Below, piece by piece: positions 33,207-53,913 of a DNA stretch of 55,990 bases (position 1 is the first letter of the stretch; each line of letters opens with the position of its first letter). A program made the translations under genes and the position numbers. Under the pieces are notes generated by a model. That model was not told the origin of the DNA and searched no databases. It worked only from the letters and a program-made list of their open reading frames with translations. This DNA comes from a virus: positions 1 through 55,990 of the IMG/VR virus record IMGVR_UViG_3300045988_068752. One strand, written 5' to 3'.

Positions 33207-33236
33207 TCTATTATGTGCCATGTAAATCCTGCGAAT
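33207..33236 (-). promoter_or_regulatory. Conserved promoter-like motif, copy a
   Basis: Minus strand: CGCAG GATTTACATGGCA CATAAT AGA. Confidence 0.55.
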
Positions 33237-33264
33237 CCCAAAATTAACCCGCGAGGATATCCAA

Positions 33265-36200
33265 TCACGCGGTCTCAGGTTTTCTTACTTTGAGAGTTCC
33301 GTGATTGATAGAAATTGTTTGAGCATCAGGATATTTGTCTTGGAGCTCAAGAGCATCGACATAGTCCTTAGGCATGTTGTCAACGATTTGAGTAATATCC
33401 CCAACCTTGATAATTTTCTTAAGTCCATCGACTGCAATTTTATCGTAGTAAGAGAAATCAACATCTTCATAATCGAATTCGGAAGTTTGCTTAAATAAAT
33501 ATCCTTTTGTTCCTGCAATGGATTTGAAGTTTTCATTATCTTCAGTCCACATGCATTCTCTTCCTGACTTGGAAGCATAAATAGAACCGACCTTACCAAC
33601 GAATTCGTCGCCAAGATAAATATGACCCTTCGATTGTTTAGTGATAAAGAAATCTCTATCAACTAATTCTTCTTTGGTCCATACACGTTTGAGTAAATAT
33701 GTGTTAGCATACTCGGCTCCTGTTGGCGACCACTCATCATCTTCAAGCTGAGCAATGTACACAGCATTGTTAATAAGAGCCATACGTTTGTAAGTATGTT
33801 CGTGTTCGAACTTGTAGTTATATTTAGGTAATTTACCAAAGTCTTCAACGAACTTAATAATCTTTTCATCAGCATCTGGGATTTTAACAGAGTCGGTCTT
33901 AATATGACAGACCTTGTATCCTTGCTCTTCGATTGCAAATTTCAAGTCGACCATAAATAAAGCTCCACGTTTCGCAACGATGTTGTCAATATTGTCTGGG
34001 TGTTTGAACTTGTTATCGAATTTGGCAGAGGTCATTCCATATACTGAGTTGATTACAATCTTCAACGCTGTAACCAAAGGCTTACGATATTCTGGGTTGT
34101 CCAAGAATGGAACCAAGATACCATTAAACATTTGTTTAACTTCATCAACCTTATTATGCTTGAGTAATACACGAACTTTAAGTAAGTCTGCATATCTCTG
34201 AGTATATGGTCCGAAGTAGTTCATATTGATTAATGAATTCGGATGCATAGATTCTACGTCAAGCAAAGCGATATTTTTGTATACACCAGGTTCAGCATAC
34301 ACAAATCCACCTTCACCAGTTTCATAGCCACGGTAATATGACTTACCGAACTCATATTTGTATCCTGGGAAAATAGTATCAAGTTTAACATAATTAAATT
34401 TCTCTTGTGGATTAGGGTCGTCACCAAAGATAAATTTAGCAGTGAGCTGATTGTTAGTTGCATTCATCGAACCTTTTGAAATGGTTGCTAAGATTTCACG
34501 CGCAACGTAGTCAGCATATATAGCGTCGAATAATTTCTCAGTTGCATCAACGTCGTTAACACAGTAATCGACTACAACTGGAACTAACTCGTCAGGGACT
34601 GGTTGGTCCCAAGGAATTTCCATCTCGACGTGTTTAATTCCTAAGTCAACTTCCCAGCGCTTGAGTGACTGCTTCTTCTGAGAATACTCATAAATATCGG
34701 TATAGCTTAATTCATAAGCTGCCGCATACATTCCACTCTTCGCATTTTTTTCGTTGACGATTCTGTAGGACTGACGGAATAATTCTAAATTATCACATCC
34801 GAGTAATCGCGCATACAGAATATGATTATCGTATCGACGGTTGTTAAAACCGACTAGAGGAAATGAAAGAAGATGTTCGATTTGGTCTGGAGTTGGATTA
34901 ACCCATTTCACAAATTCGTCTTCTCCATATTTCTTCCACACAACAACAAACAGATTTGGATAGACCTCAATATCGAAGAATACTAATTCCTCTTTTGGAT
35001 ATATCTTGGTTCCACTTGTCAGCTTATCTTCCAGTGCTCCATTATCATCTCGAATAGACGACCATGGGATTTTCTGGAATACAGCCAAACAATATTCTCT
35101 GTTATTGGTTGAACGCAGAGCACGAAGAAATACATCATGCTTCAAATCAGTCAAGTCATATTCTAGACCCATGTCATATGCTTTCTGAATTTGGTCTGCA
35201 ATCCAATCGATTGTTGGTTTTGTATTTGGGTGACTTGGTTTCTCACCCTCAATAAGACCCAACTGTCTTTTTACAAATTTACGAAGAGTCTTCTCCGTGT
35301 ATGTAATTTCTTTTACGTCTTCGTACATCTTAACCTTTCTCTCTTTCAGCGGCAAGCCCGATGAAATATGAGATGGTTGAAGATTATTTGAGCCTTTATC
35401 AATTCGTCTCAGAGAGGCATTGCCTTTATATACTTTGATTTCAATATGCTCATCTACCAAATTATCTAACTCATTGACATTACCATCATAGATATAATGC
35501 AAATGAATTCCTTGTCCGGATTTAGACACCTCGGCATATGTTGGTGGGAACTTAGATGCGGCTTCGATATTTAAATCAAGGTTCTTCTCACCGTTCTCAT
35601 CTTTCAAATCGAAATCAATAACAATATGATTCAACGGAACTTTAACCCAATGTAATTTGTCCGTATGAATATCTTTTAAAGTTGTACGCACATCATCCCA
35701 TTTCATCATGGGATTTCCATTTCTTTGCGCTAGCTGTGCAGGATAATCTGCAGCAAGTCTATTAAATACTCTATTGTTGTAGTTGAACTTCAGCCAATTA
35801 TCAGGAACAATCATTTCATCAGGATTAGTTGTGCTGACAAGTCCTTCAGGAAATGCAACATTCCATCTAAATCCTTTGAAATAATTCTTAACGCGAGTAC
35901 CATCTATAGCGCTATCTTTGACCATGGTATCAAAATAACGCAGGGCTTCTCGTTTGATAACAGCTTTATAACCATCTGTCTTCCAACCCATTTCTTCCAA
36001 ATATTCTTTATACAGTTCTCCGAGTTGTCGAAGGCTAATTCCATCCTGCATATAAATTGCATTAGAACGAATAAAATCGAAGATATGGTCTGTTTGTTCG
36101 GCCATCTCAATATCGAAGTATTCATCGAAATAATCAAACCCTAATTCCTCAAAACGATTAATCGCTATATGAGCAATATAAGGCAACTCAAATTTTATTT

Positions 36201-37143
36201 GAGCCATCAATTGATTATATTTCGTATGACTAACTTTCTGTCCACTAGGATTTACAACAACGGCTCGTCGAGTAATACCCGAGTCAACGTTACGAACTTT
36301 ATAACGTTGGTTTGATGCTGTAATTAACAATCCATTAAAAATGACAGAATAAGGTTCCTTAAATTTCTTATTGACCTGAATAATTTCATGACTCGTCAAT
36401 TTCAATAACGGGGTATCGTTTTGAATATGACTGATATCAGTATCCTCATCAATTAACAATGGTACCTCTTGAACTTGTCCTGTTGCAAACTGGTCATTGC
36501 TTGTGAGCAGTTTCAAGTCAATAGGGGCACAGTAATCTTGGAATAACATTTTAAATATCTTTAGGACAGTTCCTTTACCGCTACCTTTCGAACCATACAA
36601 ATACATGAATTTTTCAATCTTATACATGTTGTTCGTTAATAATGCACCCATAAACCACAATATCTTATCGAGTTCTTGTGGCATATATAAAGTTCCAACC
36701 AATTCAGTAAAGGCGGGAGCTTCTCCTTCTGTTGGTGTATAATTTAATTGAGTAGTAGCATAGTCATGTCGCTTCATCTTGTGGTCAGAGAACAATATCT
36801 TTTGGTTGAAAGAAATATCGCCAGACTCACAAGCTTTACAGAAATCTTGAAATAGCCTGAACTTACCAACAGATGCTCTTCTAATTTCTTTTACATCAAT
36901 TCGTAACCCAGGTCTACCCTCTTCCAGTTCTTTAGCTCTACGCCAAAGTAAAGTGTCAATATCGTAAAATAAGTTCTTCTGTTGGGTATCCCAATAAGAA
37001 CCATTCCAATACGCATAGAATTTGGAGCCTTTAACAACTAAATCCTTAGTATCTCCGAAAATAAAATCTGGAGATACTTCATAATCTACCGTTCGGTTGT
37101 TTGATGTGAACTTTTTGATAGATACGTCTAAAAAATCCACCAA
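33265..37143 (-). CDS. Replicase fusion: SF3 (D5/P4-type) helicase + AEP primase-polymerase + family B DNA polymerase (1292 aa)
   Basis: Walker A GSKGSGKGT (36568..36594) with LLIDED. AEP motifs VIDFDLKD (DFD at 35608..35616) and SKSGQGIHLHY. PolB motifs: ExoI FFDIEV (34963..34980), ExoII GFNNRRYDNHIL, ExoIII YCVNDVDATEKLF, motif A LLDVESMHPNS, motif B KIVINSVYG, motif C HIKTDS (33889..33900). Confidence 0.85.
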   Translation of the reverse strand: MVDFLDVSIKKFTSNNRTVDYEVSPDFIFGDTKDLVVKGSKFYAYWNGSYWDTQQKNLFYDIDTLLWRRAKELEEGRPGLRIDVKEIRRASVGKFRLFQDFCKACESGDISFNQKILFSDHKMKRHDYATTQLNYTPTEGEAPAFTELVGTLYMPQELDKILWFMGALLTNNMYKIEKFMYLYGSKGSGKGTVLKIFKMLFQDYCAPIDLKLLTSNDQFATGQVQEVPLLIDEDTDISHIQNDTPLLKLTSHEIIQVNKKFKEPYSVIFNGLLITASNQRYKVRNVDSGITRRAVVVNPSGQKVSHTKYNQLMAQIKFELPYIAHIAINRFEELGFDYFDEYFDIEMAEQTDHIFDFIRSNAIYMQDGISLRQLGELYKEYLEEMGWKTDGYKAVIKREALRYFDTMVKDSAIDGTRVKNYFKGFRWNVAFPEGLVSTTNPDEMIVPDNWLKFNYNNRVFNRLAADYPAQLAQRNGNPMMKWDDVRTTLKDIHTDKLHWVKVPLNHIVIDFDLKDENGEKNLDLNIEAASKFPPTYAEVSKSGQGIHLHYIYDGNVNELDNLVDEHIEIKVYKGNASLRRIDKGSNNLQPSHISSGLPLKERKVKMYEDVKEITYTEKTLRKFVKRQLGLIEGEKPSHPNTKPTIDWIADQIQKAYDMGLEYDLTDLKHDVFLRALRSTNNREYCLAVFQKIPWSSIRDDNGALEDKLTSGTKIYPKEELVFFDIEVYPNLFVVVWKKYGEDEFVKWVNPTPDQIEHLLSFPLVGFNNRRYDNHILYARLLGCDNLELFRQSYRIVNEKNAKSGMYAAAYELSYTDIYEYSQKKQSLKRWEVDLGIKHVEMEIPWDQPVPDELVPVVVDYCVNDVDATEKLFDAIYADYVAREILATISKGSMNATNNQLTAKFIFGDDPNPQEKFNYVKLDTIFPGYKYEFGKSYYRGYETGEGGFVYAEPGVYKNIALLDVESMHPNSLINMNYFGPYTQRYADLLKVRVLLKHNKVDEVKQMFNGILVPFLDNPEYRKPLVTALKIVINSVYGMTSAKFDNKFKHPDNIDNIVAKRGALFMVDLKFAIEEQGYKVCHIKTDSVKIPDADEKIIKFVEDFGKLPKYNYKFEHEHTYKRMALINNAVYIAQLEDDEWSPTGAEYANTYLLKRVWTKEELVDRDFFITKQSKGHIYLGDEFVGKVGSIYASKSGRECMWTEDNENFKSIAGTKGYLFKQTSEFDYEDVDFSYYDKIAVDGLKKIIKVGDITQIVDNMPKDYVDALELQDKYPDAQTISINHGTLKVRKPETA

Positions 37144-37479
37144 TATACCTCCATTTCTACTATCACCCTTTTTTACCCCATTTTGGCCCTATCTCCCATT
37201 GTATATATATACTAGTTCATTTTCAACTCATCCCAGTATACAATAGGAAAAGGGGCCGTTTTTGGGGGAGAAATAGGGGATTTTAATAAAATTTTCACCT
37301 TTTTCTCATTTTTTTACATCAATATTATAGGTCACCTAGAAATACCCCAAATTTCCTCAGATTTTTTGGGGGATAGTTTTAAGCCAAAATTAGCCATTTT
37401 TGACCAATTTTCCTACAATATCAATGCAAATTCCTACAGTCACCCGAAGTTTTTCTGGGCATTTTCCATAGAAATATAC
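37144..37479. other. 336-bp non-coding region upstream of the replicase gene (candidate origin and/or regulatory hub)
   Basis: No ORF. It holds repeated C4-5/G4-5 tracts, direct repeats TTTTTGGGGGA (37259.. and 37364..), the AT palindrome gtatatatatac (37201..37212) and a sigma-A-like TTTGGG-16-TATAAT on the minus strand. Confidence 0.6.
37408..37439 (-). promoter_or_regulatory. Degenerate possible 11th copy of the promoter-like motif
   Basis: Minus strand: TGTAG GAATTTGCATTGA TATTGT AGGAAA. The 13-nt spacing is the same, but both anchor elements are mutated. Confidence 0.3.
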
Positions 37480-37731
37480 CTATTTAGAACGTTTAATCCA
37501 TCGTAATTCCACCCGATTCACCAAAGAATTATCCGTTTGATAGCTGTTTGCGACCCTTGCAAGGTACTCAAAACCATCAATTTTCACCCGGACAATCTCC
37601 CCATATAAGGTAGATAATATAGGATTTCGAGACAATACAAGCTTCCAGCCAGTTATAATCCCGTCCACATCTTTAATATACTTTGCGTCAAACGCGTCTA
37701 GCACTACTGGTGAATTTGTATTTTTCTTCAT
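37480..37731 (-). CDS. Hypothetical protein (83 aa)
   Basis: ORF directly downstream of the endolysin. Confidence 0.6.
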   Translation of the reverse strand: MKKNTNSPVVLDAFDAKYIKDVDGIITGWKLVLSRNPILSTLYGEIVRVKIDGFEYLARVANSYQTDNSLVNRVELRWIKRSK

Positions 37732-37736
37732 AATTA

Positions 37737-38663
37737 TTACTTAGCGTCCTTTTCTTTAGGAGGTTCTTGTGTAGTAAGAGGCTCGGTGGTAATAAATCCA
37801 TCTGGTTCAACCTTGAATGCTGGTTGTTTGTCAAGCTTACCATCCGGAAGAAGTTTGTACCAACCATCATTATATTTAATGAATTGGTCGGACTTCATAT
37901 CGCCATCTTTAGGATCTAGGTAGTACCAGTTGTCGAAGTATTTAACCCAACCGGTCTTCATCGCTCCGTCTTTGTCGAAGTAGTACCATTTACCACCAAT
38001 CTTGACCCAAGACGTAGCCATATAACCTTTGGCGTTAAACCAATACCACTTACCATCAGTATGTTTCAACCAGCGGTCAGTGTATGCATATCCATCTTTG
38101 TCGAAGTAGAACCATGATTTATTTTCTGCAACGTATTCGAATCGGTTTGTTGGGTATGACCCGTTTTGACGTACATACCACCAACCAGTGTTATTTTTCT
38201 TCCAACCTGGTTCAACTGGCTTAGCGGTACCAGCTCCTGTGAGACGATATACGTAGTAATATGGCTTACCAGCATATACCCAGCGTTCGTCGTGGTCGTT
38301 TACTGAGATACCATTATATGCCCAGTTACAGTGGATGATATTATCGCTATCAACAAAGATACCAGTGTGGCCTCCAGCACCTGCTGACTGCCCTTTACGT
38401 CCCCAGATGAAGATATCGCCACGTTGAGCATCCCAAGGTGTGTTCTCGGCAATAAGCTCGAAGCCGTTGTCAAGCAACCATTGGTGTTGGTATTCAGTGT
38501 TTACTGCCCAACCAGCAGATACGGCTCCGCCTGAGCGTAGTGCGTAATAAATAGATGATGAACAGTCGTATGAGTCAGGCCCATCACGGTGCTCCATACT
38601 GTAATATACTTGTCCTTCACGGTTTTTCATCCAAGCAAGTGCTGTTTCTAAATTAATTGTCAT
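37737..38663 (-). CDS. Endolysin: Amidase_5/CHAP-like N-terminal domain + choline-binding-type (YG/CW_binding_1) repeats
   Basis: The N-terminus [63 protein letters not shown] resembles streptococcal/lactococcal phage lysins. The C-terminus has repeats such as [56 protein letters not shown] at 38663 follows AGGAGA. Confidence 0.9.
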
Positions 38664-38868: not shown

Positions 38869-38873
38869 CTTAG

Positions 38874-47171: not shown

Positions 47172-47197
47172 AAAAAAAGAATACCGAGTGTTATTCT
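47172..47197 (-). terminator. Putative intrinsic terminator ending the 47215..47547 cassette
   Basis: AGAATA/TATTCT stem followed by T7 on the minus strand; the stem is AT-rich. Confidence 0.45.
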
Positions 47198-47214
47198 CGA
47201 TATCCTTTTGAAAC

Positions 47215-47547
47215 TTATTCTTCAGTGTTATCACTGTCGTCAGATCCAAGATCAAAATCATCTTCGTCAGTTGCGTCGTCACCGTCATTACGTGATGCGT
47301 CTGCAAGCGCTTTCGCTGCGAATCCCAGTACAGTAACGCCAAGTGTCGCAAATCCAACTTTCTTCAACCATGGGCGGTTTTTAACAATCCATTGTTTAAC
47401 CTTACCTTTTGGTTCTTCGACTTCAATTGTCATTGTGTCTTGAACGTCCTCTACTGTTTCTTCAACAGTTTCAGCTACTTGTTCCGCAACCTTCCCGGTA
47501 GCGTCTACAACTTCCTCAATATTTTTTGAAACATTTTTCTTTGACAT
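47215..47547 (-). CDS. Acidic protein with central TM segment (110 aa); monocistronic cassette
   Basis: Motif copy b lies upstream and a hairpin+T-run downstream. The sequence includes ...VGFATLGVTVLGFAAKALA...DDATDEDDFDLGSDDSDNTEE. Confidence 0.7.
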   Translation of the reverse strand: MSKKNVSKNIEEVVDATGKVAEQVAETVEETVEDVQDTMTIEVEEPKGKVKQWIVKNRPWLKKVGFATLGVTVLGFAAKALADASRNDGDDATDEDDFDLGSDDSDNTEE

Positions 47548-47574: not shown

Positions 47575-47604
47575 TTTCATTATGACCTATGTAATTTCTG
47601 CGGA
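47575..47604 (-). promoter_or_regulatory. Conserved promoter-like motif, copy b
   Basis: Minus strand: CGCAG AAATTACATAGGT CATAAT GAAA. Confidence 0.6.
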
Positions 47605-48025: not shown

Positions 48026-48516
48026 GTTAAATAATCCTCTCCTAAATAATAACGCAACCATGTTACGGTGTCCCACTCGTTTGTATCAACACGGTTATAT
48101 ATTGTGTCAATCACATCAAGAAAATATCTAATGTGTTCTTTGTCGACGGCATATTCTTTTGGATGGGCAAATGGTTCGAACCATAAGTTCTCTCCCATTA
48201 TACTTTCCATCTCATCGTAGTAAAATCCTTCAGCCAATGAAGCGATTAACTCATCTACCATATTTCGAGATATATTCCACAAACAAAGCTCACTATCTAA
48301 TTTCTCAGTGTTATCCGATACCATCAGTAACCCAAATATATATCTCCGATAGTCCTCTTCGAATTTTAGTTTAGTCCAATTTCGAATTAGCCTACCGATA
48401 TACCAATCGTCTATGAAAAATAATTCTTGTAACGGTAACTTACGTATATTTTGTACAACCGTATCATAGAATTCTTCCTTAGACAATACCAGGGTATATT
48501 CTTCGGTAGAAACCAT
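48022..48516 (-). CDS. Hypothetical protein, paralog of 48521..49021
   Basis: Shares patterns with its neighbour: LPLQELFFIDDWYIGRLIRNWT / EEDYRRYIFGLLMV versus MPLDDFLLIPNNEIDKYIAAWT / QEDYKRYFQFIMTI. Confidence 0.6.
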   Translation of the reverse strand: MVSTEEYTLVLSKEEFYDTVVQNIRKLPLQELFFIDDWYIGRLIRNWTKLKFEEDYRRYIFGLLMVSDNTEKLDSELCLWNISRNMVDELIASLAEGFYYDEMESIMGENLWFEPFAHPKEYAVDKEHIRYFLDVIDTIYNRVDTNEWDTVTWLRYYLGEDYLT

Positions 48517-48520
48517 CACT

Positions 48521-49021
48521 TCAACCTTCTTCCTCATGATTTTCTTCTAATACTTTGTCATAGTATTTTTCGAATTCCTTACGCAGTTCAGTAGCGCTCA
48601 TATATGCTCTGCGATTGTCCGGGTCATTTTCAATTTTGTTTGCCGTTTCGGATATCAATTCGTATAACAATTGATAGTTTTCATGCATTACATCCGCGGT
48701 TCCGAATACAGTTTTGTAATATGAAGTTTCTAACATAGATAACAACATAGAGTCAATAATCTTACGGGCAATACGGAAATAGTATAAATCCATATCTACG
48801 ATATGCATTTCAGGCGGAATTGTCATGATGAATTGGAAATATCGTTTGTAGTCTTCTTGTGCAGGACTGTTACCCTTTTCATCTGGGTCCGTCCACGCAG
48901 CGATATATTTGTCAATTTCGTTGTTTGGAATTAACAAAAAGTCATCAAGCGGCATCGCTTTAATCATATCAATAATTGTCTGCTTGAATTCAGCAGACGT
49001 TTTAACAATTGGTCTAGCCAT
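48521..49021 (-). CDS. Hypothetical protein, paralog of 48022..48516
   Basis: See the paired motifs in the previous entry. Confidence 0.6.
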   Translation of the reverse strand: MARPIVKTSAEFKQTIIDMIKAMPLDDFLLIPNNEIDKYIAAWTDPDEKGNSPAQEDYKRYFQFIMTIPPEMHIVDMDLYYFRIARKIIDSMLLSMLETSYYKTVFGTADVMHENYQLLYELISETANKIENDPDNRRAYMSATELRKEFEKYYDKVLEENHEEEG

Positions 49022-49033
49022 TTTTACCTCACT

Positions 49034-49264
49034 TTATAAATACAAATTCTCAATGATGGATACCATCATAAATAGGTATATAAACCCAATAAATAACATT
49101 CCAGTAAATGCTATTAGGAAACCTAAGAACCCCAACGTGCTCATAAGATTTAACATCAATAAGAAACCAATTGTCTCTACACATAAAACTAGAAACGTCA
49201 ATGCGAACATGAATAACACATCTGTTAAGTTGTTTTCTAATACATATTTAATTTTCTCCCACAT
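49034..49264 (-). CDS. Small multi-TM membrane protein (76 aa), holin-like topology
   Basis: VLFMFALTFLVLCVETIGFLLMLNLMSTLGFLGFLIAFTGMLFIGFIYLFMMV. Confidence 0.55.
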   Translation of the reverse strand: MWEKIKYVLENNLTDVLFMFALTFLVLCVETIGFLLMLNLMSTLGFLGFLIAFTGMLFIGFIYLFMMVSIIENLYL

Positions 49265-49625
49265 TTATTCCATTTCCTTTCAAATAATAATTTCTGATAA
49301 TTTGTTTAGGAGTCAGCTCACCATTAAATACACCATACACATAAATTTCATATGTCCATCTGTCAGTACGAATATTGTATTGTAAAGGTGTTACCGATGT
49401 AATAATACCCGCTTTAAATATAGACAATTCGTCATGCAAAATCTCAGGTTCAATTTTTTGCACACCATCGGACATTCGAGTATATCTTTCGTATCCTTGC
49501 ATACCAATTTCTTGAAGATTTGTAGATACTTCAATTTTAAAACGGTTGTCATCAAGCCGCGTAACATACTTCTTAATAATTGGATTTTTTGGTTTTGTCT
49601 CCTTCGTCATAACAATATCTGTCAT
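49248..49625 (-). CDS. Hypothetical protein (125 aa)
   Basis: ORF with a GAGGAGG RBS directly after a terminator. Confidence 0.6.
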   Translation of the reverse strand: MTDIVMTKETKPKNPIIKKYVTRLDDNRFKIEVSTNLQEIGMQGYERYTRMSDGVQKIEPEILHDELSIFKAGIITSVTPLQYNIRTDRWTYEIYVYGVFNGELTPKQIIRNYYLKGNGINVGEN

Positions 49626-49640
49626 GTTTACCTCCTCACA

Positions 49641-49666
49641 AAAAGAAAGGGATAAGTAATCCCTTT
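49641..49666 (-). terminator. Intrinsic terminator ending the 49665..49955 cassette
   Basis: AAAGGGAT/ATCCCTTT 8-bp stem (49646-49653 with 49659-49666) followed by CTTTTTG on the minus strand. Confidence 0.6.
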
Positions 49667-49955
49667 ATTTGAAAAATCGTTTGCTGACTACTCCCCAGAG
49701 CTTGGATGTAATAATGTTCATTCTTTCGAAATATAACACGCCAGCCATTCCAGTTACATCGATAATAGCTCTTAAAATTGTTTCCGGCTTCAACTTGTTT
49801 TTGTCACGTTCGTTCCGTACTGCAACGAGTTTTGCCAATTTCAAATTAAGATCCATAATCTCAGCTTCTGTTTCAGCTAGAGCTATTTTCGTTTGAAGTT
49901 CCTCTATTTGCATGTTAAGCCCATCAAAGCATATAGCCATCATAATTTCTCTCAT
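49665..49955 (-). CDS. Hypothetical protein (96 aa); monocistronic cassette
   Basis: Motif copy j upstream and a terminator downstream. Confidence 0.65.
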   Translation of the reverse strand: MREIMMAICFDGLNMQIEELQTKIALAETEAEIMDLNLKLAKLVAVRNERDKNKLKPETILRAIIDVTGMAGVLYFERMNIITSKLWGVVSKRFFK

Positions 49956-49970
49956 ATATTTTTACCTTCC

Positions 49971-50000
49971 TTTCATTATAGCATAGGGAAATCCTGCGCA
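49971..50000 (-). promoter_or_regulatory. Conserved promoter-like motif, copy j (overlaps the last codons of 49976..50335)
   Basis: Minus strand: CGCAG GATTTCCCTATGC TATAAT GAAA. Confidence 0.6.
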
Positions 50001-50335
50001 CCATTTGGTACGAATTTTACCGGTGATAATTCGGGCGGCAATATGGCTGGTTTAAGAGTTACTCTAACATCCGCGTCACCTTTCCATACGGGAGGAACCA
50101 AATATATGGTTGTGAGTATCCAAGTTTTGCCGAGAAAATTCACTAGTAGAAGAGAATTATCATTAGAATTGTTTAATAAATAATCCTTACGAAGCAAACG
50201 CATGATTTCGTTATTAACAAAATGAATATTAACCACGCTTTGTTTAAGTATAGCATCGAATTCTTCCGTAACATTCTCATGAACCATTGTCGAATATACT
50301 TTGTTTTGGTATTTAATTATAAGTCTTCCAATCAT
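49976..50335 (-). CDS. Hypothetical protein (119 aa)
   Basis: ORF track. Confidence 0.55.
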   Translation of the reverse strand: MIGRLIIKYQNKVYSTMVHENVTEEFDAILKQSVVNIHFVNNEIMRLLRKDYLLNNSNDNSLLLVNFLGKTWILTTIYLVPPVWKGDADVRVTLKPAILPPELSPVKFVPNGAQDFPML

Positions 50336-50337
50336 AT

Positions 50338-50655
50338 TTATACCGCCCTCACTAAATGCAACACAATATACTGTGAACCAAATTCTGGCTTATGAAAATT
50401 CATACTCTTTAATGAATAATCATCATGAACTTTACCACCGATAATAAATGTAGGCTTACACTTTGGTGGTATTGTCAACTTTGCAAATCGACACGCATCC
50501 CTAATATGTTGATAATAAGGTATAATAACACCTATTTTCTTCTCAACATACTCACCTGTATCCCAATAGCGAGATGATTCGTCCCATATAGTAACATCTT
50601 GAAATGAATACACCTTACCATCTATCTCAAATATAAATCGATTAATTGGTTCCAT
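50338..50655 (-). CDS. Hypothetical protein (105 aa)
   Basis: ORF track. Confidence 0.55.
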   Translation of the reverse strand: MEPINRFIFEIDGKVYSFQDVTIWDESSRYWDTGEYVEKKIGVIIPYYQHIRDACRFAKLTIPPKCKPTFIIGGKVHDDYSLKSMNFHKPEFGSQYIVLHLVRAV

Positions 50656-50945
50656 TAGTCATCTCCAAAAATCTTACGCAATTCGTCATTTTGGTCCTTA
50701 AGAAACATAGATTCGCCTAGTTTACCTTCTTCCCCAATCGCTTCATTAAGTTCGCGATTATATTTGGTATTTCGTCGACCAAGAATAAGATAGGCAACTG
50801 CGGTAAGGATGCCTGTAGCAGCCATACCAACAGCACCTTTAATTTGTTCATTCGCACGACCATCGACTTGTCCACGGTAATACGCTTCTTGCATGTCTTT
50901 GTCTTCAAATTCTACACCTTCAATTTTAAACATATTTTTAAACAT
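50655..50945 (-). CDS. Hypothetical membrane protein (96 aa)
   Basis: TM segment AVGMAATGILTAVAYLILG. Confidence 0.55.
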   Translation of the reverse strand: MFKNMFKIEGVEFEDKDMQEAYYRGQVDGRANEQIKGAVGMAATGILTAVAYLILGRRNTKYNRELNEAIGEEGKLGESMFLKDQNDELRKIFGDD

Positions 50946-50959
50946 ATTAGTTTCTCCTT

Positions 50960-51286
50960 TTATTCATCCAAAGTTTTATCTAATGCTCGTAGTATAATGA
51001 CTAACTCAGAAATATATGACAGGGGTATATGCTTTTTGGGAGTGTATGCGCATTCCACACATTTCAAATAAAGTTCAGTCATACCTTTTTTCAAAACTGC
51101 CAATTGTAATTCGGAATCAATATCCTTAATTTCATAAGCACGTTTTTCGACTCGGTCAACTTTATCGATATCATCAACCAATGTATTGATACTTTCTTTA
51201 CAATCTTTTCTAAGCTTTTTGTTAAAAAATAACCATGTAATTAGTGAACTACGGTCTTTCAAACTGTCGTTGTTTAATATATACAT
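50960..51286 (-). CDS. Hypothetical protein (108 aa)
   Basis: ATG at 51286 follows GGGGGAG. Confidence 0.55.
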   Translation of the reverse strand: MYILNNDSLKDRSSLITWLFFNKKLRKDCKESINTLVDDIDKVDRVEKRAYEIKDIDSELQLAVLKKGMTELYLKCVECAYTPKKHIPLSYISELVIILRALDKTLDE

Positions 51287-51297
51287 TATTACTCCCC

Positions 51298-51435
51298 CTA
51301 TGTAATATCCCAAACCTTTTTAATCAAGTATAAAATTACTCCAACTTTCGTTAAGCTGGAAATTGTAACATTCCGATTTTGCTTTTTCTCAGTAGCAGTT
51401 CTTGCTATAATTTGTTGCAATACTTCTTTATCCAT
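51298..51435 (-). CDS. Small protein (45 aa)
   Basis: GAGGAGG RBS directly after a terminator; encodes MDKEVLQQIIARTATEKKQNRNVTISSLTKVGVILYLIKKVWDIT. Confidence 0.5.
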   Translation of the reverse strand: MDKEVLQQIIARTATEKKQNRNVTISSLTKVGVILYLIKKVWDIT

Positions 51436-51449
51436 TTGTACCTCCTCAC

Positions 51450-51477
51450 AAAAAAAGAAAGGATATTTTCATATCCT
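51450..51477 (-). terminator. Intrinsic terminator ending the 51483..51665 cassette
   Basis: AGGATAT/ATATCCT stem (51460-51466 with 51471-51477) and a 4-nt loop, followed by TTCTTTTTTT on the minus strand. Confidence 0.65.
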
Positions 51478-51482
51478 AATCT

Positions 51483-51665
51483 TTAGAAATTTTCATTTCT
51501 AAGTTTCTTTAATACGCTTTGAACTGTATTCAAGCGACGTTTATGAAATTCGCTATCTTCGTTAATGTAACCCTGTTTTTCGAGTTTCTTTACATAATCC
51601 TCTTCCAACACGGCGTATAACGCCAACAAGCGAAATCCTAATTCTCGCACACATTTTCTGAACAT
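51483..51665 (-). CDS. Small protein (60 aa); monocistronic cassette
   Basis: Motif copy c upstream, AAGGAGGA RBS, terminator downstream. Confidence 0.65.
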   Translation of the reverse strand: MFRKCVRELGFRLLALYAVLEEDYVKKLEKQGYINEDSEFHKRRLNTVQSVLKKLRNENF

Positions 51666-51687
51666 ATTAAGTCCTCCTTAAATTTTA

Positions 51688-51716
51688 TTTCATTATAGGA
51701 TGTGTAAAAACTGCGT
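51688..51716 (-). promoter_or_regulatory. Conserved promoter-like motif, copy c
   Basis: Minus strand: CGCAG TTTTTACACATCC TATAAT GAAA. Confidence 0.6.
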
Positions 51717-51862
51717 TACAATAATTTTTTAAAAGCAGCTTCCATTTTCTCATATTTAAGTTGGATAATCGCAGGGTTCTGCATAATGTTAAGCATATCA
51801 CTAGCGTTTTCGTGTAACAAATCAGGTCTAGTTATAAAAATAATTGGTTCGGGTCTATTCAT
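51716..51862 (-). CDS. Small protein (48 aa)
   Basis: ATG at 51862 (MNRPEPIIFITRPDLL...) follows AAAGGAGG. Confidence 0.5.
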   Translation of the reverse strand: MNRPEPIIFITRPDLLHENASDMLNIMQNPAIIQLKYEKMEAAFKKLL

Positions 51863-51941
51863 TATCTTTACCTCCTTTGAATAATGTCCGAATGATGTCA
51901 ATTACCATAAACAATGATAAAATCCACATAAATAAAGTCAT
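51855..51941 (-). CDS. Possible small hydrophobic peptide (28 aa)
   Basis: AAAGGAGG RBS; encodes MTLFMWILSLFMVIDIIRTLFKGGKDNE. Its stop overlaps the next start. Confidence 0.4.
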   Translation of the reverse strand: MTLFMWILSLFMVIDIIRTLFKGGKDNE

Positions 51942-52053
51942 GTATATTACCTCCTTTACTTGACTTCACAAAACCCTCCATATGTAAATTTGACTGAATA
52001 AAGTTGAGGCTTCCTCCTTAAAAATAATTATTTATGGAGAGCTTGGTGAAATC

Positions 52054-52080
52054 AAAAAAGAAAGGAGCCTTTAAGCTCCT
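52054..52080 (-). terminator. Intrinsic terminator ending the 52085..52273 cassette
   Basis: AGGAGC/GCTCCT stem (52063-52068 with 52075-52080) followed by TTTCTTTTTT on the minus strand. Confidence 0.6.
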
Positions 52081-52084
52081 ATTC

Positions 52085-52273
52085 TTATTCTTCCTTATTA
52101 GTATTGCGTACCAACAATGATAACGCCACAACAGCAGTTCCTACGGTCAGTAAACCTTCAATAGTACCTTGACCTGCTCCTTTAAGGCAACTAACAATAA
52201 ATTTGTCGTTTTCCTTAATTTCAAGCGGTGTGTCTACAAAGTTAACAAGACCTAAAAATCCTTTGTTTGTCAT
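52085..52273 (-). CDS. Small protein with C-terminal TM segment (62 aa); monocistronic cassette
   Basis: ATG at 52273 follows GGAGGA; encodes MTNKGFLGLVNFVDTPLEIKEND...GLLTVGTAVVALSLLV. Confidence 0.65.
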   Translation of the reverse strand: MTNKGFLGLVNFVDTPLEIKENDKFIVSCLKGAGQGTIEGLLTVGTAVVALSLLVRNTNKEE

Positions 52274-52296
52274 TATGTTGTCCTCCAATATTTTTA

Positions 52297-52325
52297 TTTC
52301 ATTATAGGGTATGTAATTACTGCGA
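52297..52325 (-). promoter_or_regulatory. Conserved promoter-like motif, copy d
   Basis: Minus strand: CGCAG TAATTACATACCC TATAAT GAAA. Confidence 0.6.
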
Positions 52326-52763
52326 TTAAGTTAACTTCCTATAGTCACCAATAAGTTTATCAGGAAAATATTCCCCATCGTTATTGATATCCAATATAGG
52401 CGCTTTCTCTCCTTCATCTAACATATCAGCAACTGTGTGTGAATATGCCTTGATTGTTGCGAAGAACATAGGTGCGTCCTTCTTGGAAATATAAACCGTC
52501 TGTGCAGTATGTGCTCGCTTAGGTTTAGGGTTGTGAATACGGATACCTTCAAAATAACTTTTATCTGGATCGATAAATCCAGACATAATTACTGGTACGT
52601 CGTTAGCTACCAAATTCACATACACGATATACTCTCCAATCTTCTCATCGAAATATGAGTGAATGTATTTAAAAAGAAGAGAATGTACATTTGGCATTCT
52701 CTTAGTAACTCCGAATTTCCTTCCTGTCTTTTTAACAGTTTTCCTTTTCTTGCTAATAGGCAT
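52326..52763 (-). CDS. Hypothetical protein (145 aa) with basic N-terminus
   Basis: ATG at 52763 follows AAGGAGG; encodes MPISKKRKTVKKTGRKFGVTKR... Confidence 0.6.
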   Translation of the reverse strand: MPISKKRKTVKKTGRKFGVTKRMPNVHSLLFKYIHSYFDEKIGEYIVYVNLVANDVPVIMSGFIDPDKSYFEGIRIHNPKPKRAHTAQTVYISKKDAPMFFATIKAYSHTVADMLDEGEKAPILDINNDGEYFPDKLIGDYRKLT

Positions 52764-52799
52764 AGCAAACCTCCTTAAATGATTTTGAAAAAAAAAAAA

Positions 52800-52890
52800 C
52801 GAAGGAGTGAATATGCGGCATCGCACCGCACTTCCATTTCTGGATGCTTTCCTAAAACCTACTAAGCATATTCTTATGGCTTATTCCTTC
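52800..52890 (-). ncRNA. Candidate ~90-nt structured small RNA (third promoter-RNA-oligoT cassette)
   Basis: It begins at the end of motif copy e. A GAAGGA/TCCTTC closing stem (52885-52890 with 52801-52806) is followed by G+T12. An internal TGCGG-TGCGATG-CCGCA hairpin has 5 bp and a 7-nt loop. No ORF and no RBS. Confidence 0.35.
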
Positions 52891-52916
52891 ATTATAATGT
52901 ATGTAAATCCTGCGAA
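52887..52916 (-). promoter_or_regulatory. Conserved promoter-like motif, copy e
   Basis: Minus strand: CGCAG GATTTACATACAT TATAAT GAAG. Confidence 0.6.
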
Positions 52917-52925
52917 ATTCAAAAA

Positions 52926-53040
52926 AAAAGGGTGCCGGATTCGAACCGACGACAGCCATCCGTATTCACGTTATCCAATGTGGGGAATACGGGCGCTCTA
53001 ATATGGATAAATATCCACACACCACTGAGCTAAGCCCTTT
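52926..53040 (-). ncRNA. 114-nt tRNA-like RNA with expanded D-loop and anticodon arm
   Basis: Minus strand: AAAGGGC TTA GCTC AGTGGT[GTGTGGATATTTATCCATAT]TA GAGC G CCGTATTC[17-nt loop]GAATACGG ATGGCTGTC GTCGG TTCGAAT CCGGC ACCCTTT + T-run. The D-arm, T-arm and acceptor pairing are canonical. About 40 nt are extra. Confidence 0.5.
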
Positions 53041-53067
53041 TCATTATAGCGTATGTAATTTCTGCGA
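53038..53067 (-). promoter_or_regulatory. Conserved promoter-like motif, copy f
   Basis: Minus strand: CGCAG AAATTACATACGC TATAAT GAAA. The terminal AAA are the first three nt of the tRNA-like acceptor stem. Confidence 0.6.
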
Positions 53068-53071
53068 AAAA

Positions 53072-53145
53072 AAAGAATAGAGTGGAGTTGAACCACGTCG
53101 CCCCTCCTGAATAATCAGGATGCTCTCCCGCTGAGCTATATTCTT
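53072..53145 (-). tRNA. tRNA gene (about 73 nt) with non-canonical anticodon loop; identity unassigned
   Basis: Minus strand: AAGAATA TA GCTC AGCGGGA GAGC A TCCTG ATTATT CAGGA GGGGCGAC GTGG TTCAACT CCAC TC TATTCTT + T8. The 7-bp acceptor stem is perfect and the D-arm and T-loop are canonical, but the anticodon loop has only 6 nt. Confidence 0.6.
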
Positions 53146-53172
53146 CATTATATGGTATGTAAATCCTGCGGA
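53143..53172 (-). promoter_or_regulatory. Conserved promoter-like motif, copy g
   Basis: Minus strand: CGCAG GATTTACATACCA TATAAT GAAG. The terminal AAG are tRNA positions 1-3. Confidence 0.6.
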
Positions 53173-53174
53173 TT

Positions 53175-53199
53175 AAAAAAGAGAGGGAATTAACCCTCT
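53175..53199 (-). terminator. Intrinsic terminator ending the 53207..53623 cassette
   Basis: AGAGGG/CCCTCT stem (53182-53187 with 53194-53199) followed by CTTTTTT on the minus strand. Confidence 0.65.
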
Positions 53200-53206
53200 G
53201 ATGATT

Positions 53207-53623
53207 TTATAAAGATTTATAAAACTTAACAATATCTTTAAATTCACCTTTACGTTCGTTTACGATTGGTGTAATCTTATTTATATGTTGTGTGAAATAA
53301 TCTTTAACTTCTTCATCGTTTTTAATTCCCTCTACAATATCCTTATTTACTTGCGATAGTCGTTCATGTGTTTCAAACATTTTTTGTGTTCTATCATATA
53401 TTTCATCTTTAGAAATAGATTCAATAACAGCTTCTGCTTCTCTACGAAGACGTTTGTAAAGCGATTTGGTGTATTCAATAATATGTAAGTTAGCTTTTGA
53501 AATGCCAACCACCATTTTATATTGATCATCCAACATCTTTCCAAGTTCGACATCGTTTAGCATATACGCTAATTCAATCATATTTGTTTGATTTAGTGAT
53601 AGTTCGTTAGTTTGTTTAGTCAT
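53207..53623 (-). CDS. Hypothetical protein (138 aa); monocistronic cassette
   Basis: Motif copy h upstream, AGGAGGG RBS, terminator downstream. Confidence 0.7.
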   Translation of the reverse strand: MTKQTNELSLNQTNMIELAYMLNDVELGKMLDDQYKMVVGISKANLHIIEYTKSLYKRLRREAEAVIESISKDEIYDRTQKMFETHERLSQVNKDIVEGIKNDEEVKDYFTQHINKITPIVNERKGEFKDIVKFYKSL

Positions 53624-53651
53624 GACAATGACCCTCCTATAATAAATTTTA

Positions 53652-53681
53652 TTTCATTATAGGGTTTGGAATTCCTGCGAA
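53652..53681 (-). promoter_or_regulatory. Conserved promoter-like motif, copy h
   Basis: Minus strand: CGCAG GAATTCCAAACCC TATAAT GAAA. Confidence 0.6.
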
Positions 53682-53707
53682 AAAAGAGGAGTATATGTAA
53701 ATACTCC
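53680..53707 (-). terminator. Intrinsic terminator ending the 53735..53869 cassette
   Basis: GGAGTAT/ATACTCC stem (53688-53694 with 53701-53707) followed by TCTTTTTT, which runs straight into the CGCAG of motif copy h. Confidence 0.6.
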
Positions 53708-53734
53708 GTTATATCATGTAGTTGTGAATAGATG

Positions 53735-53869
53735 CTAACGATCATATTTCTTTATCATGTATGCCCACAGTCCAATAACGGCTGCTCCGGCAACTGACAC
53801 GAAAATAGGCGTCTCTAGCATTGTGTATTCCCACACTCTACAAGCTTTACGTTTAAGTTTATCCGACAT
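53735..53869 (-). CDS. Small membrane protein (44 aa); monocistronic cassette
   Basis: AAGGAGGA RBS; encodes MSDKLKRKACRVWEYTMLETPIFVSVAGAAVIGLWAYMIKKYDR. It is below the ORF-track cutoff. Confidence 0.55.
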   Translation of the reverse strand: MSDKLKRKACRVWEYTMLETPIFVSVAGAAVIGLWAYMIKKYDR

Positions 53870-53883
53870 ATGTTTGTCCTCCT

Positions 53884-53913
53884 TTTCATTATGTGGTATG
53901 TATTTTATGCGAA
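53884..53913 (-). promoter_or_regulatory. Conserved promoter-like motif, copy i (most divergent: CGCAT)
   Basis: Minus strand: CGCAT AAAATACATACCA CATAAT GAAA. Confidence 0.5.

Follow-up and report, generated by a model that had tools for sequence, protein, structure and literature searches.

A co-oriented promoter-like motif in a 56-kb phage genome and the single-chain RNA polymerase that probably reads it

Ten copies of a promoter-like motif punctuate the early region of the phage genome studied here, and they raise the question of which enzyme reads them, the host sigma-A holoenzyme or a polymerase of the phage itself. The window, meaning the whole 55,990-nt stretch analysed (IMG/VR record IMGVR_UViG_3300045988_068752), is a closed, circular genome of 55,990 bp because an ORF reads through the 1/55990 junction, and the motif census is therefore genome-wide. 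This 56-kb genome is that of a phage of mouth bacteria. No published description of the motif was found in the literature. The ten sites are almost certainly transcription start signals, and comparison with distant phages suggests that they are probably promoters of the phage's own 881-aa two-barrel RNA polymerase, not of the host holoenzyme.

Motif census and operon layout

Scanning both strands for CGCAG-N13-YATAAT returned nine exact matches, each of them on the minus strand, against a shuffle expectation of 0.05 (nine matches occurred in none of the shuffles), and the tenth copy (53884-53911), which reads CGCAT, was picked up at one mismatch. The copies share a 28-nt core carrying ~40 bits of information, and none of the 15 positions upstream of it exceeds 1 bit. 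When a weight matrix derived from the ten copies was run over the whole genome, it recovered exactly the same ten sites, with zero matches on the plus strand. All genes are co-directional, and all ten copies lie on the gene strand between 33.2 and 53.9 kb; the late block (~27.9 kb down to position 1) contains none. Like sigma-70/sigma-A promoters, the motif has an exact TATAAT, the sigma-A -10 consensus, whose departures fall mostly at sigma-A-tolerated positions (CATAAT, TATAGT), and a TTTACA block one base off the -35 consensus. Unlike them, its two blocks are 5 bp apart instead of 17, a properly spaced -35 and a TG extension are absent from the copies (only 51715 has a -35-like hexamer, a chance resemblance), and the start would fall 1-2 nt rather than 6-9 nt past the hexamer. 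Sites of the sigma-70 type show no enrichment (80 observed versus 73 expected). The motif looks like a compressed bipartite promoter.

The copies directly follow terminators and either precede start codons by 17-60 nt or stand at the head of structured RNAs (Table 1). An earlier note on this DNA had listed ten minus-strand copies with neither a conserved -35 nor a TG, six of them heading monocistronic units that end in a hairpin plus T-run, three heading small RNAs, one (33233) followed at once by a terminator and none in the packaging/structural block, and all of this was borne out; four of the six unit ends were recovered by terminator scan and two were read from the sequence. Its description of the copies as intergenic holds for most, although 49998 runs into the final codons of the ORF upstream of it and two others, 52324 and 51715, directly adjoin stop codons. 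Likewise, the cassettes do have terminators of their own, but they are not self-contained: three long operons (51435-49976, 49625-47608 and 47150-37737) lie behind the terminators of cassettes 51483-51665, 49665-49955 and 47215-47547, respectively, without a promoter of their own, and would therefore be expressed by read-through only. The proposed insulation of the regulon must consequently be abandoned, as most genes behind the cassettes are promoter-less and dependent on terminator read-through. Without the motif copies, the whole early region would be promoter-less.

Table 1. Coordinates of the motif copies and associated features (all on the minus strand).
Feature	Position	Strand	Remarks
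Motif copy 10	53884..53911	(-)	CGCATAAAATACATACCACATAATGAAA; first promoter past late-operon terminator
Motif copy 9	53652..53679	(-)	ahead of 138-aa ORF 53207-53623
Motif copy 8	53143..53170	(-)	ahead of tRNA-like RNA A
Motif copy 7	53039..53066	(-)	ahead of tRNA-like RNA B
Motif copy 6	52887..52914	(-)	ahead of small RNA C
Motif copy 5	52297..52324	(-)	ahead of 62-aa membrane-type ORF 52085-52273
Motif copy 4	51688..51715	(-)	ahead of 60-aa ORF 51483-51665
Motif copy 3	49971..49998	(-)	overlaps upstream ORF end; ahead of 96-aa ORF 49665-49955
Motif copy 2	47575..47602	(-)	ahead of 110-aa acidic/membrane ORF 47215-47547
Motif copy 1	33206..33233	(-)	variant CATAAT-AGAG
Intrinsic terminator, cassette 53735-53869	53688..53707	(-)	terminator scan
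Intrinsic terminator, cassette 53207-53623	53182..53199	(-)	terminator scan
Intrinsic terminator, cassette 52085-52273	52063..52080	(-)	terminator scan
Hairpin + T-run, cassette 51483-51665	51451..51477	(-)	read from sequence
Intrinsic terminator, cassette 49665-49955	49646..49666	(-)	terminator scan
Hairpin + T-run, cassette 47215-47547	47172..47204	(-)	read from sequence
tRNA-like RNA A	53073..53146	(-)	cloverleaf; 4-6-nt loop replaces anticodon loop
tRNA-like RNA B	52925..53042	(-)	D- and T-arms; hairpin inserts in D-loop and anticodon arm
Small RNA C	52800..52890	(-)	~90 nt
Sigma-A-like TTGAAA-17-TACAAT	37198..37226	(-)	upstream of DNA polymerase gene
Leader hairpin + U-run	33163..33209	(-)	directly after copy 1; -14.2 kcal/mol
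881-aa single-chain two-barrel RNA-polymerase-like protein	27934..30579	(-)	
102-aa acidic protein, phrog_4303	27612..27920	(-)	always next after polymerase gene across supercluster
GC-rich non-coding gap	27460..27611	(-)	downstream of polymerase; no motif copy; then late genes

RNA structures abutting the hexamer

Several RNA structures begin almost at the hexamer itself. The acceptor-like stem of RNA A starts 1-2 nt past it (its 3' end lies in a U-run), the terminal stem of RNA B starts at nt 1, and so does the closing stem of RNA C (GAAGGA/UCCUUC, then U12), while the leader hairpin after copy 1, which probably attenuates the polymerase operon, has its 5' arm from nt 2. In at least 10 of 16 lineages the leader terminators of the polymerase operon start 1-3 nt past the hexamer, and their arms covary (AGAAGGA/TCCTTCT, AGAAGAG/CTCTTCT, GAGAGG/CCTCTT, AGGGA/TCCCT), as do the tRNA-like acceptor stems among relatives (AAGAATA/TATTCTT versus AAGAAGA/TCTTCTT). 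Shine-Dalgarno sequences are also found at nt 1-5 past the hexamer, both in phage 1706 and in the window, where AAGGAGG begins 4 nt past it at copy 53911 and the corresponding element 5 nt past it at copy 49998. Since covarying structures abut the hexamer, we infer that transcription starts directly after TATAAT. Enzymes of the sigma-70 family start 6-9 nt past the -10 hexamer and their sigma factors need an A at its position 2; a start directly after TATAAT cannot be made by an enzyme of this type. Among 519 instances, a purine directly follows the hexamer in essentially all and 42 (~8%) lack the A at position 2 (e.g., TTTAAT, TGTAAT, TCTAAT), counts that are biased in that the 120 loci were picked by exact motif match and the matrix spans +1 to +4. 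At the polymerase-operon copy, several lineages carry TTTTAT.

Conservation of the motif together with a two-barrel polymerase

The motif recurs in hundreds of distant phages encoding the unusual single-protein RNA polymerase, ahead of small genes and with its spacing kept (CGCR-N6-7-ACA-N5-TATAAT-GA). Caudovirus D_HF5_2C has nine copies, Lactococcus phage 1706 has 9-10 of cgCAtgTTTTACATAnaCTATAGT-AGAAAG, Arthrobacter phage Mudcat seven, Streptomyces phage DrGrey 12 (e.g., CGCAGGATTTACACGCCCTATAATGAGA versus CGCAGGATTTACATACCATATAATGAAG in the window) and Gordonia phage Kenosha eight, so that the bearers come from two bacterial phyla, Firmicutes and Actinobacteria. The polymerases of these phages are only 39-46% identical, and little is common to the compared phages except the replication module and the 881-aa protein. 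The copy at the copy 1 position, ahead of the polymerase operon, is kept in nearly all lineages, and copy 1 itself is the predicted promoter of the SSAP-helicase-endonuclease-exonuclease-polymerase operon. Copies on the gene strand versus the opposite one numbered 55 versus 0 in six genomes, 49 versus 0 in 80 polymerase loci from IMG/VR and 530 versus 0 in 120 IMG/VR motif loci picked by exact motif match (579 versus 0 over the 200 IMG/VR loci). Homologues of supercluster genes were present on 110 of the 120 motif-bearing stretches, and within IMG/VR the motif is almost confined to the polymerase-bearing lineage. Because the signal recurs in phages that all encode this polymerase, the motif is probably its promoter. 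The earlier note had linked the motif to a YonO-like polymerase of the phage and pointed to relatives as the place to look for it, and the phages named above, which share both motif and enzyme, argue for that link. The motif and the polymerase each mark the lineage, so that co-occurrence cannot single out the polymerase against other proteins conserved in it, such as phrog_4079 or phrog_4303.

The 881-aa protein is a credible polymerase, judged from its sequence and predicted fold. Helix-turn-helix (HTH) domains lie at residues ~40-175 and 853-881, the latter resembling sigma-70 region 4 (matched in 5/6 members); these segments are well conserved across homologues, the GADFDGD loop is invariant in 27 diverse homologues, and Pfam RdRP is matched by 4/6 members. 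Foldseek with a structure model of moderate confidence (pLDDT 68, TM ~0.25) placed QDE-1 (E = 1.7e-6) and RDR2 first, followed by Rpb1 and beta'. Koert et al. (bioRxiv 10.1101/842583) likewise reached the polymerase view, by HHpred. The earlier note's comparison with T7-class promoters therefore does not extend to the enzyme, which is a two-barrel, QDE-1-like polymerase with fused HTH domains; the search of the large ORFs gave no T7-like (Pol-A type) RNAP. No sigma factor was detected among the larger proteins scanned (small ORFs covered in part), nor any MotA- or AsiA-like protein among the proteins scanned, and the HTH-flanked polymerase is the only transcription-type DNA-binding protein conserved supercluster-wide. 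Its constant neighbor, the phrog_4303 protein, is a candidate cofactor. The N-terminus of the 881-aa protein weakly resembles the DUF7211 tag. Packaging of the protein in the virion is only hinted at by sequence; the GenBank record of phage 1706 flags seven proteins as virion components, the polymerase not among them.

The closest known arrangement is that of Thermus phage P23-45, in which two single-chain two-barrel polymerases are each paired with a separate conserved, co-occurring promoter motif, AT-rich for the virion RNAP gp96 and GC-rich for the non-virion RNAP gp64 (bioRxiv 10.1101/2022.12.01.518664; PMC10770324). There as here, a QDE-1-like enzyme goes with a 15-30-nt motif directly upstream of starts, and motif and enzyme co-occur among relatives. 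The present enzyme differs in belonging to another clade, in having HTH domains at both ends and no tape measure fusion; its motif is unrelated in sequence, and its lineage spans two phyla. YonO of SPbeta, the only characterised relative (Forrest et al., 2017, PMC5467207), is also a single-polypeptide two-barrel RNAP of ~100 kDa with a DxDGD loop, encoded beside the genes it serves. Unlike the 881-aa protein, it has no HTH and its C-terminus, as judged from sequence, is Cys-rich (CxxC...CxxC); similarity between the two is too low for tblastn. The late genes served by YonO are transcribed from a single start site, for which no promoter has yet been defined (PMC5467207); the yonN-yonK gap contains a stretch of 15 nt identical to the window motif, but outside the mapped start-site interval. 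The contiguous block up to +1, with an upstream part for duplex recognition and an AT-rich part for melting, the conserved purine-rich initial transcript and the many copies on one strand recall T7/T3/SP6 promoters, but there is no resemblance to the T7 consensus and the enzyme family is unrelated.

Alternative readings and the proposed mechanism

Among the points against the polymerase reading are that the hexamer is an exact sigma-A -10 consensus, and that YonO serves late genes, yet the late block here lacks motif copies. An unlikely alternative is that the sites are host sigma-A promoters at which a phage activator, bound to CGCAG/TTACA (-30 to -18), replaces the -35 contact; the HTH domains of the 881-aa protein might themselves be this activator, in which case the protein would serve as a factor and not as a polymerase. 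This would suit the perfect -10 without a -35, the tolerated hexamer variation, the HTH-rich protein conserved across the supercluster and an intrinsic terminator after each unit, as fits bacterial RNAP, and it would release the phage polymerase to serve late genes, as YonO does. It would also parallel the middle promoters of T4, which combine a MotA box with a sigma-70 -10 (sigma appropriation), in having a good -10 and a phage-specific box instead of a -35. The box here, however, reaches -18, MotA/AsiA homologues and sigma factors are absent from the proteins scanned, and the start-site evidence is against a sigma-70-type open complex: a +7 start would delete the covarying structures and the Shine-Dalgarno sequences at 1-5 nt, some hexamers lack the A at position 2, and the near-universal purine follows directly. 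An activator would still be needed at time zero.

It is less probable still that both enzymes use the sites, with a weak host sigma-A start via the -10, a few nt downstream, stopping at the terminators yet making the first polymerase, after which the phage enzyme takes over and reads through. Such dual use would account for the retention of an exact TATAAT across hosts of two phyla, for the leader terminator ahead of the polymerase operon and for promoter-less operons, and a late block, located behind terminators; in addition, hairpin-dependent termination by multisubunit RNAPs requires a flap domain, which is missing from YonO (PMC5467207). The scheme is purely inferential, however; promoters that have a -10 but neither TG nor -35 are very weak, lineages with TTTTAT at the polymerase operon could not bootstrap in this way, and the separate sigma-A-like site ahead of the DNA polymerase gene offers an alternative entry point. 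Least probable is that the motif initiates nothing and is a co-oriented binding site (a stoperator-like operator or a shut-off site) or an RNA processing/stability element. Actinophages commonly carry co-oriented intergenic repeats whose function is unknown (PMC7302621), and with co-directional genes read-through transcripts would carry the motif; nevertheless, its position behind terminators and just ahead of start codons or structured RNAs, the AT-rich hexamer with its following purine, the otherwise promoter-less early region and the lack of a repressor or integrase in these phages all oppose it.

With the 881-aa polymerase as the probable reader, its fused HTH domains would dock on duplex DNA at CGCAG (~-24) and the -35-like TTTACA (~-15), about one helical turn apart, the AT-rich hexamer (-6 to -1) would melt, and RNA would start at the purine immediately past it (G-A-R-A). 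As such promoters would drive the seemingly earliest genes and the polymerase gene alike, something must act first. The sigma-A-like site at 37198..37226 belongs to a block that is also conserved in D_HF5_2C and is a candidate for the place where host RNAP enters and produces the initial polymerase. Another possible solution is an injected polymerase acting on phage-specific early promoters, as with the virion RNAPs of N4 and crAss-like phages, among which gp66 of phi14:2 is a two-barrel enzyme (bioRxiv 10.1101/2020.03.07.982082); N4 promoters, however, are DNA hairpins, and the N4/crAss-like enzymes are much larger. Each promoter would then serve one short unit, a tiny protein or structured RNA that is probably highly expressed and ends at a hairpin plus U-run, and read-through would reach the genes further downstream and probably also the 27-kb late block, which begins past a gap (27460..27611) where cos-type relatives have their genome ends. 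The variant copy 1 and the leader terminator would together control the polymerase operon, an arrangement that implies autoregulation of the enzyme.

Distribution of the motif in the window and in related phages

The ten minus-strand copies described in the earlier note were recovered by independent counting. The pattern CGCAG-N13-YATAAT occurs nine times exactly, always on the minus strand (0.05 expected), and the tenth copy reads CGCAT. When the ten copies were turned into a weight matrix and both strands of the whole window were scanned with it, just those ten sites came back and none on the plus strand. The 28-nt core holds approximately 40 bits and the upstream flank almost none (no position before CGCAG exceeds 1 bit). 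The reported arrangement of the copies was also borne out, as six of them head single small ORFs, each closed by a hairpin plus T-run, three head small RNAs and one is followed directly by a hairpin plus U-run. The description of these cassettes as insulated has to be revised. Three of the cassette terminators precede multi-gene operons that have no promoter of their own, which makes attenuation, not insulation, the fitting description of the system. Behind one terminator, a 222-bp gap contains a degenerate half-motif (CAGTCAAATTTACATATGGAGGG) that lacks the hexamer and may be the remnant of a promoter.

The distribution of the motif is much broader than the reader behind that note could see. 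Searching the genomes of relatives de novo for over-represented words gave the same element as the top word in every genome searched. Lactococcus phage 1706 has ten copies of (c/g)CAyrTTTTACATAnnCTATAGT-AGAAAG, Arthrobacter phage Mudcat bears CGCGTAAAWTACAnGGGCTATAAT-GA, and Streptomyces phage DrGrey and Gordonia phage Kenosha share tCGCAnnnWTTACAyGyCCTATAAT-GAGACCCCTAC. Spacing is identical to that of the window and the key bases CGC and ACA hardly vary. One copy of DrGrey, the host of which is an actinomycete of 72% GC, agrees with a window copy in 23 of 28 nt. In DrGrey and Kenosha (L006 and L127 among the compared loci), which infect different host genera, conservation is as strong in the 11 nt that follow the hexamer (GAGACCCCTAC) as in the promoter; in the actinophage members this stretch may represent a conserved start of the transcript or a 5'-UTR element.

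Matches to the window matrix on the gene and opposite strands were 10/0 for the window, 9/0 for Caudovirus D_HF5_2C, 9/0 for 1706, 7/0 for Mudcat, 12/0 for DrGrey and 8/0 for Kenosha. These six genomes span five host genera, and the motif, which the earlier note had proposed to look for beside YonO-like genes, is present in all six together with the polymerase. Equal frequency on the other strand, which the same note had named as an outcome against its reading, was not seen: no opposite-strand match was found in the six genomes or in 80 IMG/VR loci chosen by their polymerase gene, where 49 matches lie on the polymerase strand. About half of these 80 loci, many of which contain little upstream DNA, have a match. 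Measured from the polymerase gene, most matches are located approximately 0.9-1 kb upstream in the actinophage type and 2.65 kb upstream in the oral clade, where the polymerase-operon promoter is situated. In IMG/VR, an exact 17-base pattern is found in more than 120 stretches. Homologues of genes of the six reference genomes are carried by 110 of 120 motif-bearing stretches, and the 120 hold 530 matrix matches, with no locus having matches on both strands. Taken with the hits at polymerase loci, this co-occurrence across relatives, judged on polymerase-bearing members of the lineage, indicates that the motif is a trait of the phage lineage and not of any host.

Genome layout and non-coding elements

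All long ORFs of the window are carried by the minus strand and one of them crosses the 1/55990 junction, showing that the window is a closed phage genome of 55,990 bp. Its sole close relative in GenBank is Caudovirus D_HF5_2C from human saliva, the only DNA-level match among GenBank phages. The endolysin that ends the small-gene region suggests a Streptococcus host. One gene downstream of the polymerase there is a non-coding gap, GC-rich with G/C-runs, conserved with D_HF5_2C. Because the genomes of the linear relatives 1706, Mudcat, DrGrey and Kenosha end at the equivalent place, the gap is probably the cos site. Upstream of the DNA polymerase gene, a 336-bp non-coding stretch is a candidate replication origin and/or early promoter for host RNA polymerase (RNAP). 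It has a 21-nt inverted repeat and TCCCCCAAAAA repeats in addition to a conserved sigma-A-like TTGAAA-17-TACAAT.

Positions of the features discussed, in the window unless another record is named
Feature	Position	Strand	Remarks
DUF7211-type basic proteins, late operon end			First in transcription order (55,990 to 1)
DUF7211 proteins	ORF starts near 55561, 54958, 54393, about 190 (wraps to 55573), 25650, 17866, 16463	minus
Small-gene region	~53.9-37.7 kb		Last gene: Amidase_5/choline-binding endolysin
tRNA-like RNA A	53073-53146	minus
tRNA-like RNA B	52925-53042	minus
RNA C	52800-52890	minus
Half-motif gap	52084-51863
Non-coding stretch upstream of DNA polymerase gene	37144-37479
DNA polymerase/primase gene	37143-33265
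Leader of polymerase operon	33163-33209	minus	Hairpin plus U-run
Operon: single-strand-annealing protein (SSAP), helicase, endonuclease, exonuclease, 881-aa protein	last gene 30579-27934
phrog_4303 gene	27612-27920	minus	102 aa
GC-rich non-coding gap	27460-27611
Terminase, portal, capsid and tail genes			After GC-rich gap; last in transcription order
tRNA-like RNA, L001	27876-27965
tRNA-like RNA, L127 (Kenosha) record	33353-33440
tRNA-like RNA, L003	about 31090-31190
GAAATTACATACCCT site, SPbeta NC_001884.1 (L209) record	about 60127-60151		yonN-yonK gap

Two of the small RNAs, A and B, belong to a tRNA-like family with members in the compared loci L001, L127 and L003 as well as in L032, L063, L066, L091, L029, L046 and L078. 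These RNAs have normal D- and T-arms, and the anticodon loop is replaced by a tetraloop (for example GAAA or GCAA) or a long insert; they are fused to the promoter without a gap, terminate in a U-run and lack an encoded CCA. Rfam gave no match at gathering thresholds. RNA A scores 24.1 bits against a threshold of 29 and ARAGORN assigns it a 2-base "anticodon"; RNA B is not called, and the RNAs of relatives have tetraloops. With neither a 7-nt anticodon loop nor a sufficient score, A and B are not canonical tRNAs. Nearly all members of the family are missed by ARAGORN and Rfam. A role as decoys for tRNA-targeting defences or tRNA enzymes is possible.

Probable position of the transcription start

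In nearly all lineages, the polymerase-operon copy of the motif runs straight into a hairpin plus U-run, and in at least 10 of 16 the 5' arm of this leader hairpin starts 1-3 nt past the hexamer. Its arms vary in sequence and stay complementary (AGAAGGA/TCCTTCT, AGAAGAG/CTCTTCT, GAGAGG/CCTCTT, AGGGA/TCCCT). In the window and at the equivalent place in L128-L207, position and pairing are kept across very distant lineages and sequence is not; the hairpin is probably an attenuator or an autoregulatory switch. Within the window, the terminal stem closes on nt 1-2 in the leader, in both tRNA-like RNAs and in RNA C, and the acceptor-like stems of the tRNA-like RNAs covary among relatives (AAGAATA/TATTCTT versus AAGAAGA/TCTTCTT). 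An extended Shine-Dalgarno sequence (AGAAAGAAGGT) begins at nt 1 after the hexamer in phage 1706, and the Shine-Dalgarno of window copies 53911 and 49998 at nt 4-5. Directly behind the hexamer there is a purine in essentially all of 519 instances, G in 91% and A in 9%, and A/G, R and A come next; as the matrix includes those positions, the count is biased.

Holoenzymes of the sigma-70 family start 6-9 nt past the -10 element, and such a start would omit these stems and Shine-Dalgarno elements. RNA structures and Shine-Dalgarno sequences located 1-5 nt after the hexamer thus appear not to fit it. Sigma factors also require A at position 2 of the hexamer (-11). This base is present in 10/10 window copies and is replaced by T, G or C in about 8% of the 519 related instances (TTTAAT, TGTAAT, TCTAAT), while TTTTAT is the hexamer of the polymerase-operon copy in several lineages. 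On this evidence, we infer that +1 is the purine directly after the hexamer. CGCAG would then span about -24 to -20, TTTACA about -17 to -12 and the hexamer -6 to -1.

The polymerase-like protein and the reading of the motif

The 881-aa protein belongs to phrog_4291, annotated as "RNA-dependent RNA polymerase". Full-length homologues (39-46% identity) are found in approximately 250 GenBank phages, including the Lactococcus 1706 group, Faecalibacterium phages and phages of Arthrobacter, Gordonia, Streptomyces, Rhodococcus, Microbacterium and Curtobacterium, and besides its members in at least 250 sequenced phages, the family counts at least 8,000 protein clusters in metagenomes. In linear genomes, the gene is always at the right end. 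The catalytic DxDGD loop is invariant as GADFDGD in six members and in 27 diverse homologues. Pfam RdRP scored 22.3 bits against a cutoff of 23.8, with E < 0.01 in 4/6 members. PDB sequence and profile searches were uninformative on the catalytic core (best by sequence, a phage beta' with E about 1). The AlphaFold (AF2) model, which rose from a pLDDT of 47 with a shallow alignment to 68 with more diverse homologues, has QDE-1 (E = 1.7e-6), RDR2 and then Rpb1/beta' as its best Foldseek matches in the PDB. The TM-score to the best structure matches is only about 0.25, so that the two-barrel polymerase fold is predicted with moderate confidence. Three HTH segments lie in the N-terminal 175 residues, and the C-terminal HTH matches sigma-70 region 4 in 5/6 diverse members. 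The non-structural proteins conserved in the supercluster are the DNA polymerase/primase, SSAP, helicase, endonuclease, exonuclease, polymerase-like protein, phrog_4079 and phrog_4303, among which the polymerase-like protein alone has recognisable DNA-binding domains. Directly after its gene, in every lineage examined, stands the acidic phrog_4303 protein, a candidate cofactor or inhibitor of the polymerase. The same 881-aa protein was regarded as a possible RNA polymerase and supercluster signature by Koert et al. (bioRxiv 10.1101/842583), where promoters or the motif are not mentioned.

The motif sites are very likely promoters, as far as sequence can tell. The main rival to their being promoters of the phage polymerase is that host RNAP reads them together with a phage factor. 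The hexamer YATAAT of all ten window copies is -10-like (close to TATAAT), and in sequence the motif looks like a sigma-70 promoter with its spacer compressed from 17 to 5 bp. Neither a phage sigma factor nor a MotA/AsiA-type appropriation factor was found among the 19 proteins scanned. A plain sigma-A reading was rejected: in a consensus scan, sigma-70-type sites were not enriched in the region (80 found versus 73 expected), and the earlier statement that the -35 position is not conserved stood, with a chance -35 in one of ten copies and a TG extension in none. Taking TTTACA as a -35 with a -10 further downstream was likewise discarded, as inspection revealed no conserved hexamer 17 bp downstream. 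The T7-class idea of the earlier note survives in its architectural half. A contiguous conserved block up to +1 and multiple co-oriented copies make the layout functionally like that of T7 promoters, while Pfam and PHROG detected no T7-like RNAP gene in the large ORFs, where a DNA polymerase/primase and the RdRP-like protein were seen. The motif appears to be a member of neither the sigma-70 nor the T7 promoter family. The best-supported reading, which we consider probable, assigns the sites to the phage's own two-barrel polymerase with its fused HTH domains.

The closest functional precedent is Thermus phage P23-45, with two single-chain two-barrel polymerases and an own motif for each (PMC10770324). 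YonO produces one very long late transcript, the promoter of which was left undefined (Forrest et al., PMC5467207), and offers a model for motif-driven read-through into the late block. In SPbeta, GAAATTACATACCCT followed by TAAAAT has a 15-nt identity to the core of the window motif and is kept in one close relative (L212). It lies outside the start interval bracketed by the primers of Forrest et al., downstream of the primer-extension primer, and was therefore not counted as support. A simple pattern gave no consistent motif at more distant yonO loci.

If the sites are read by the phage's own polymerase, its fused HTH modules would bind the CGCAG and TTTACA blocks, about one helical turn apart, and the catalytic module would melt the AT hexamer and initiate with GTP or ATP. 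Each promoter would yield a short abundant product, with partial terminator read-through supplying the operons beyond; the promoter-less late block could be supplied by transcripts that start at the polymerase-operon promoter and run through the cos-like gap. Polymerase synthesis would be limited or autoregulated by the leader terminator. As motif promoters serve apparent early genes and the polymerase gene itself, a bootstrap problem arises. The first polymerase could be made by host RNAP from the sigma-A-like promoter upstream of the DNA polymerase gene or by weak host-RNAP firing at the perfect TATAAT, or the phage could inject the enzyme. The N-terminal DUF7211 motif DVIEH[HFY]G[IV]KGM[KR]WG, shared by seven basic proteins of the late/structural block, may be a virion-targeting tag. 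To this motif the invariant N-terminus of the polymerase family (..L.HYGT.R.SGRYPWGSG) is weakly similar (hhalign probability 65%; Pfam E = 0.019 for one homologue), but the polymerase is not among the virion proteins listed in the 1706 GenBank record. More tentative, and in our judgement somewhat doubtful as a whole, is the proposal of a small self-sufficient system, in which an enzyme with tandem N-terminal HTHs and a sigma-70-region-4-like C-terminal HTH would read a compressed promoter (CGCAG, -35-like TTTACA, 5-bp spacer, -10-like TATAAT, start on the next purine) without sigma or host subunits in phages of Firmicutes and Actinobacteria, and may even be injected via a DUF7211-related N-terminal tag.

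Non-exhaustive searches by name, cluster and literal motif found no published description of the motif. For annotation, its value lies in early transcription units, in a conserved attenuator that precedes the polymerase operon, and in tRNA-like RNAs without an anticodon that form a family. No promoter is defined for YonO-type or HTH-fused single-chain two-barrel polymerases, and if the link to the polymerase holds, an annotation curiosity would become a transcription system that has a 28-bp consensus and can be tested. A minimal two-barrel enzyme would then have gained promoter specificity by fusing sigma-like HTH modules, which bears on the evolution of sigma-dependent initiation, and the pair would constitute a compact orthogonal polymerase-promoter system, comparable to that of T7, that already functions in Gram-positive hosts of both low and high GC.
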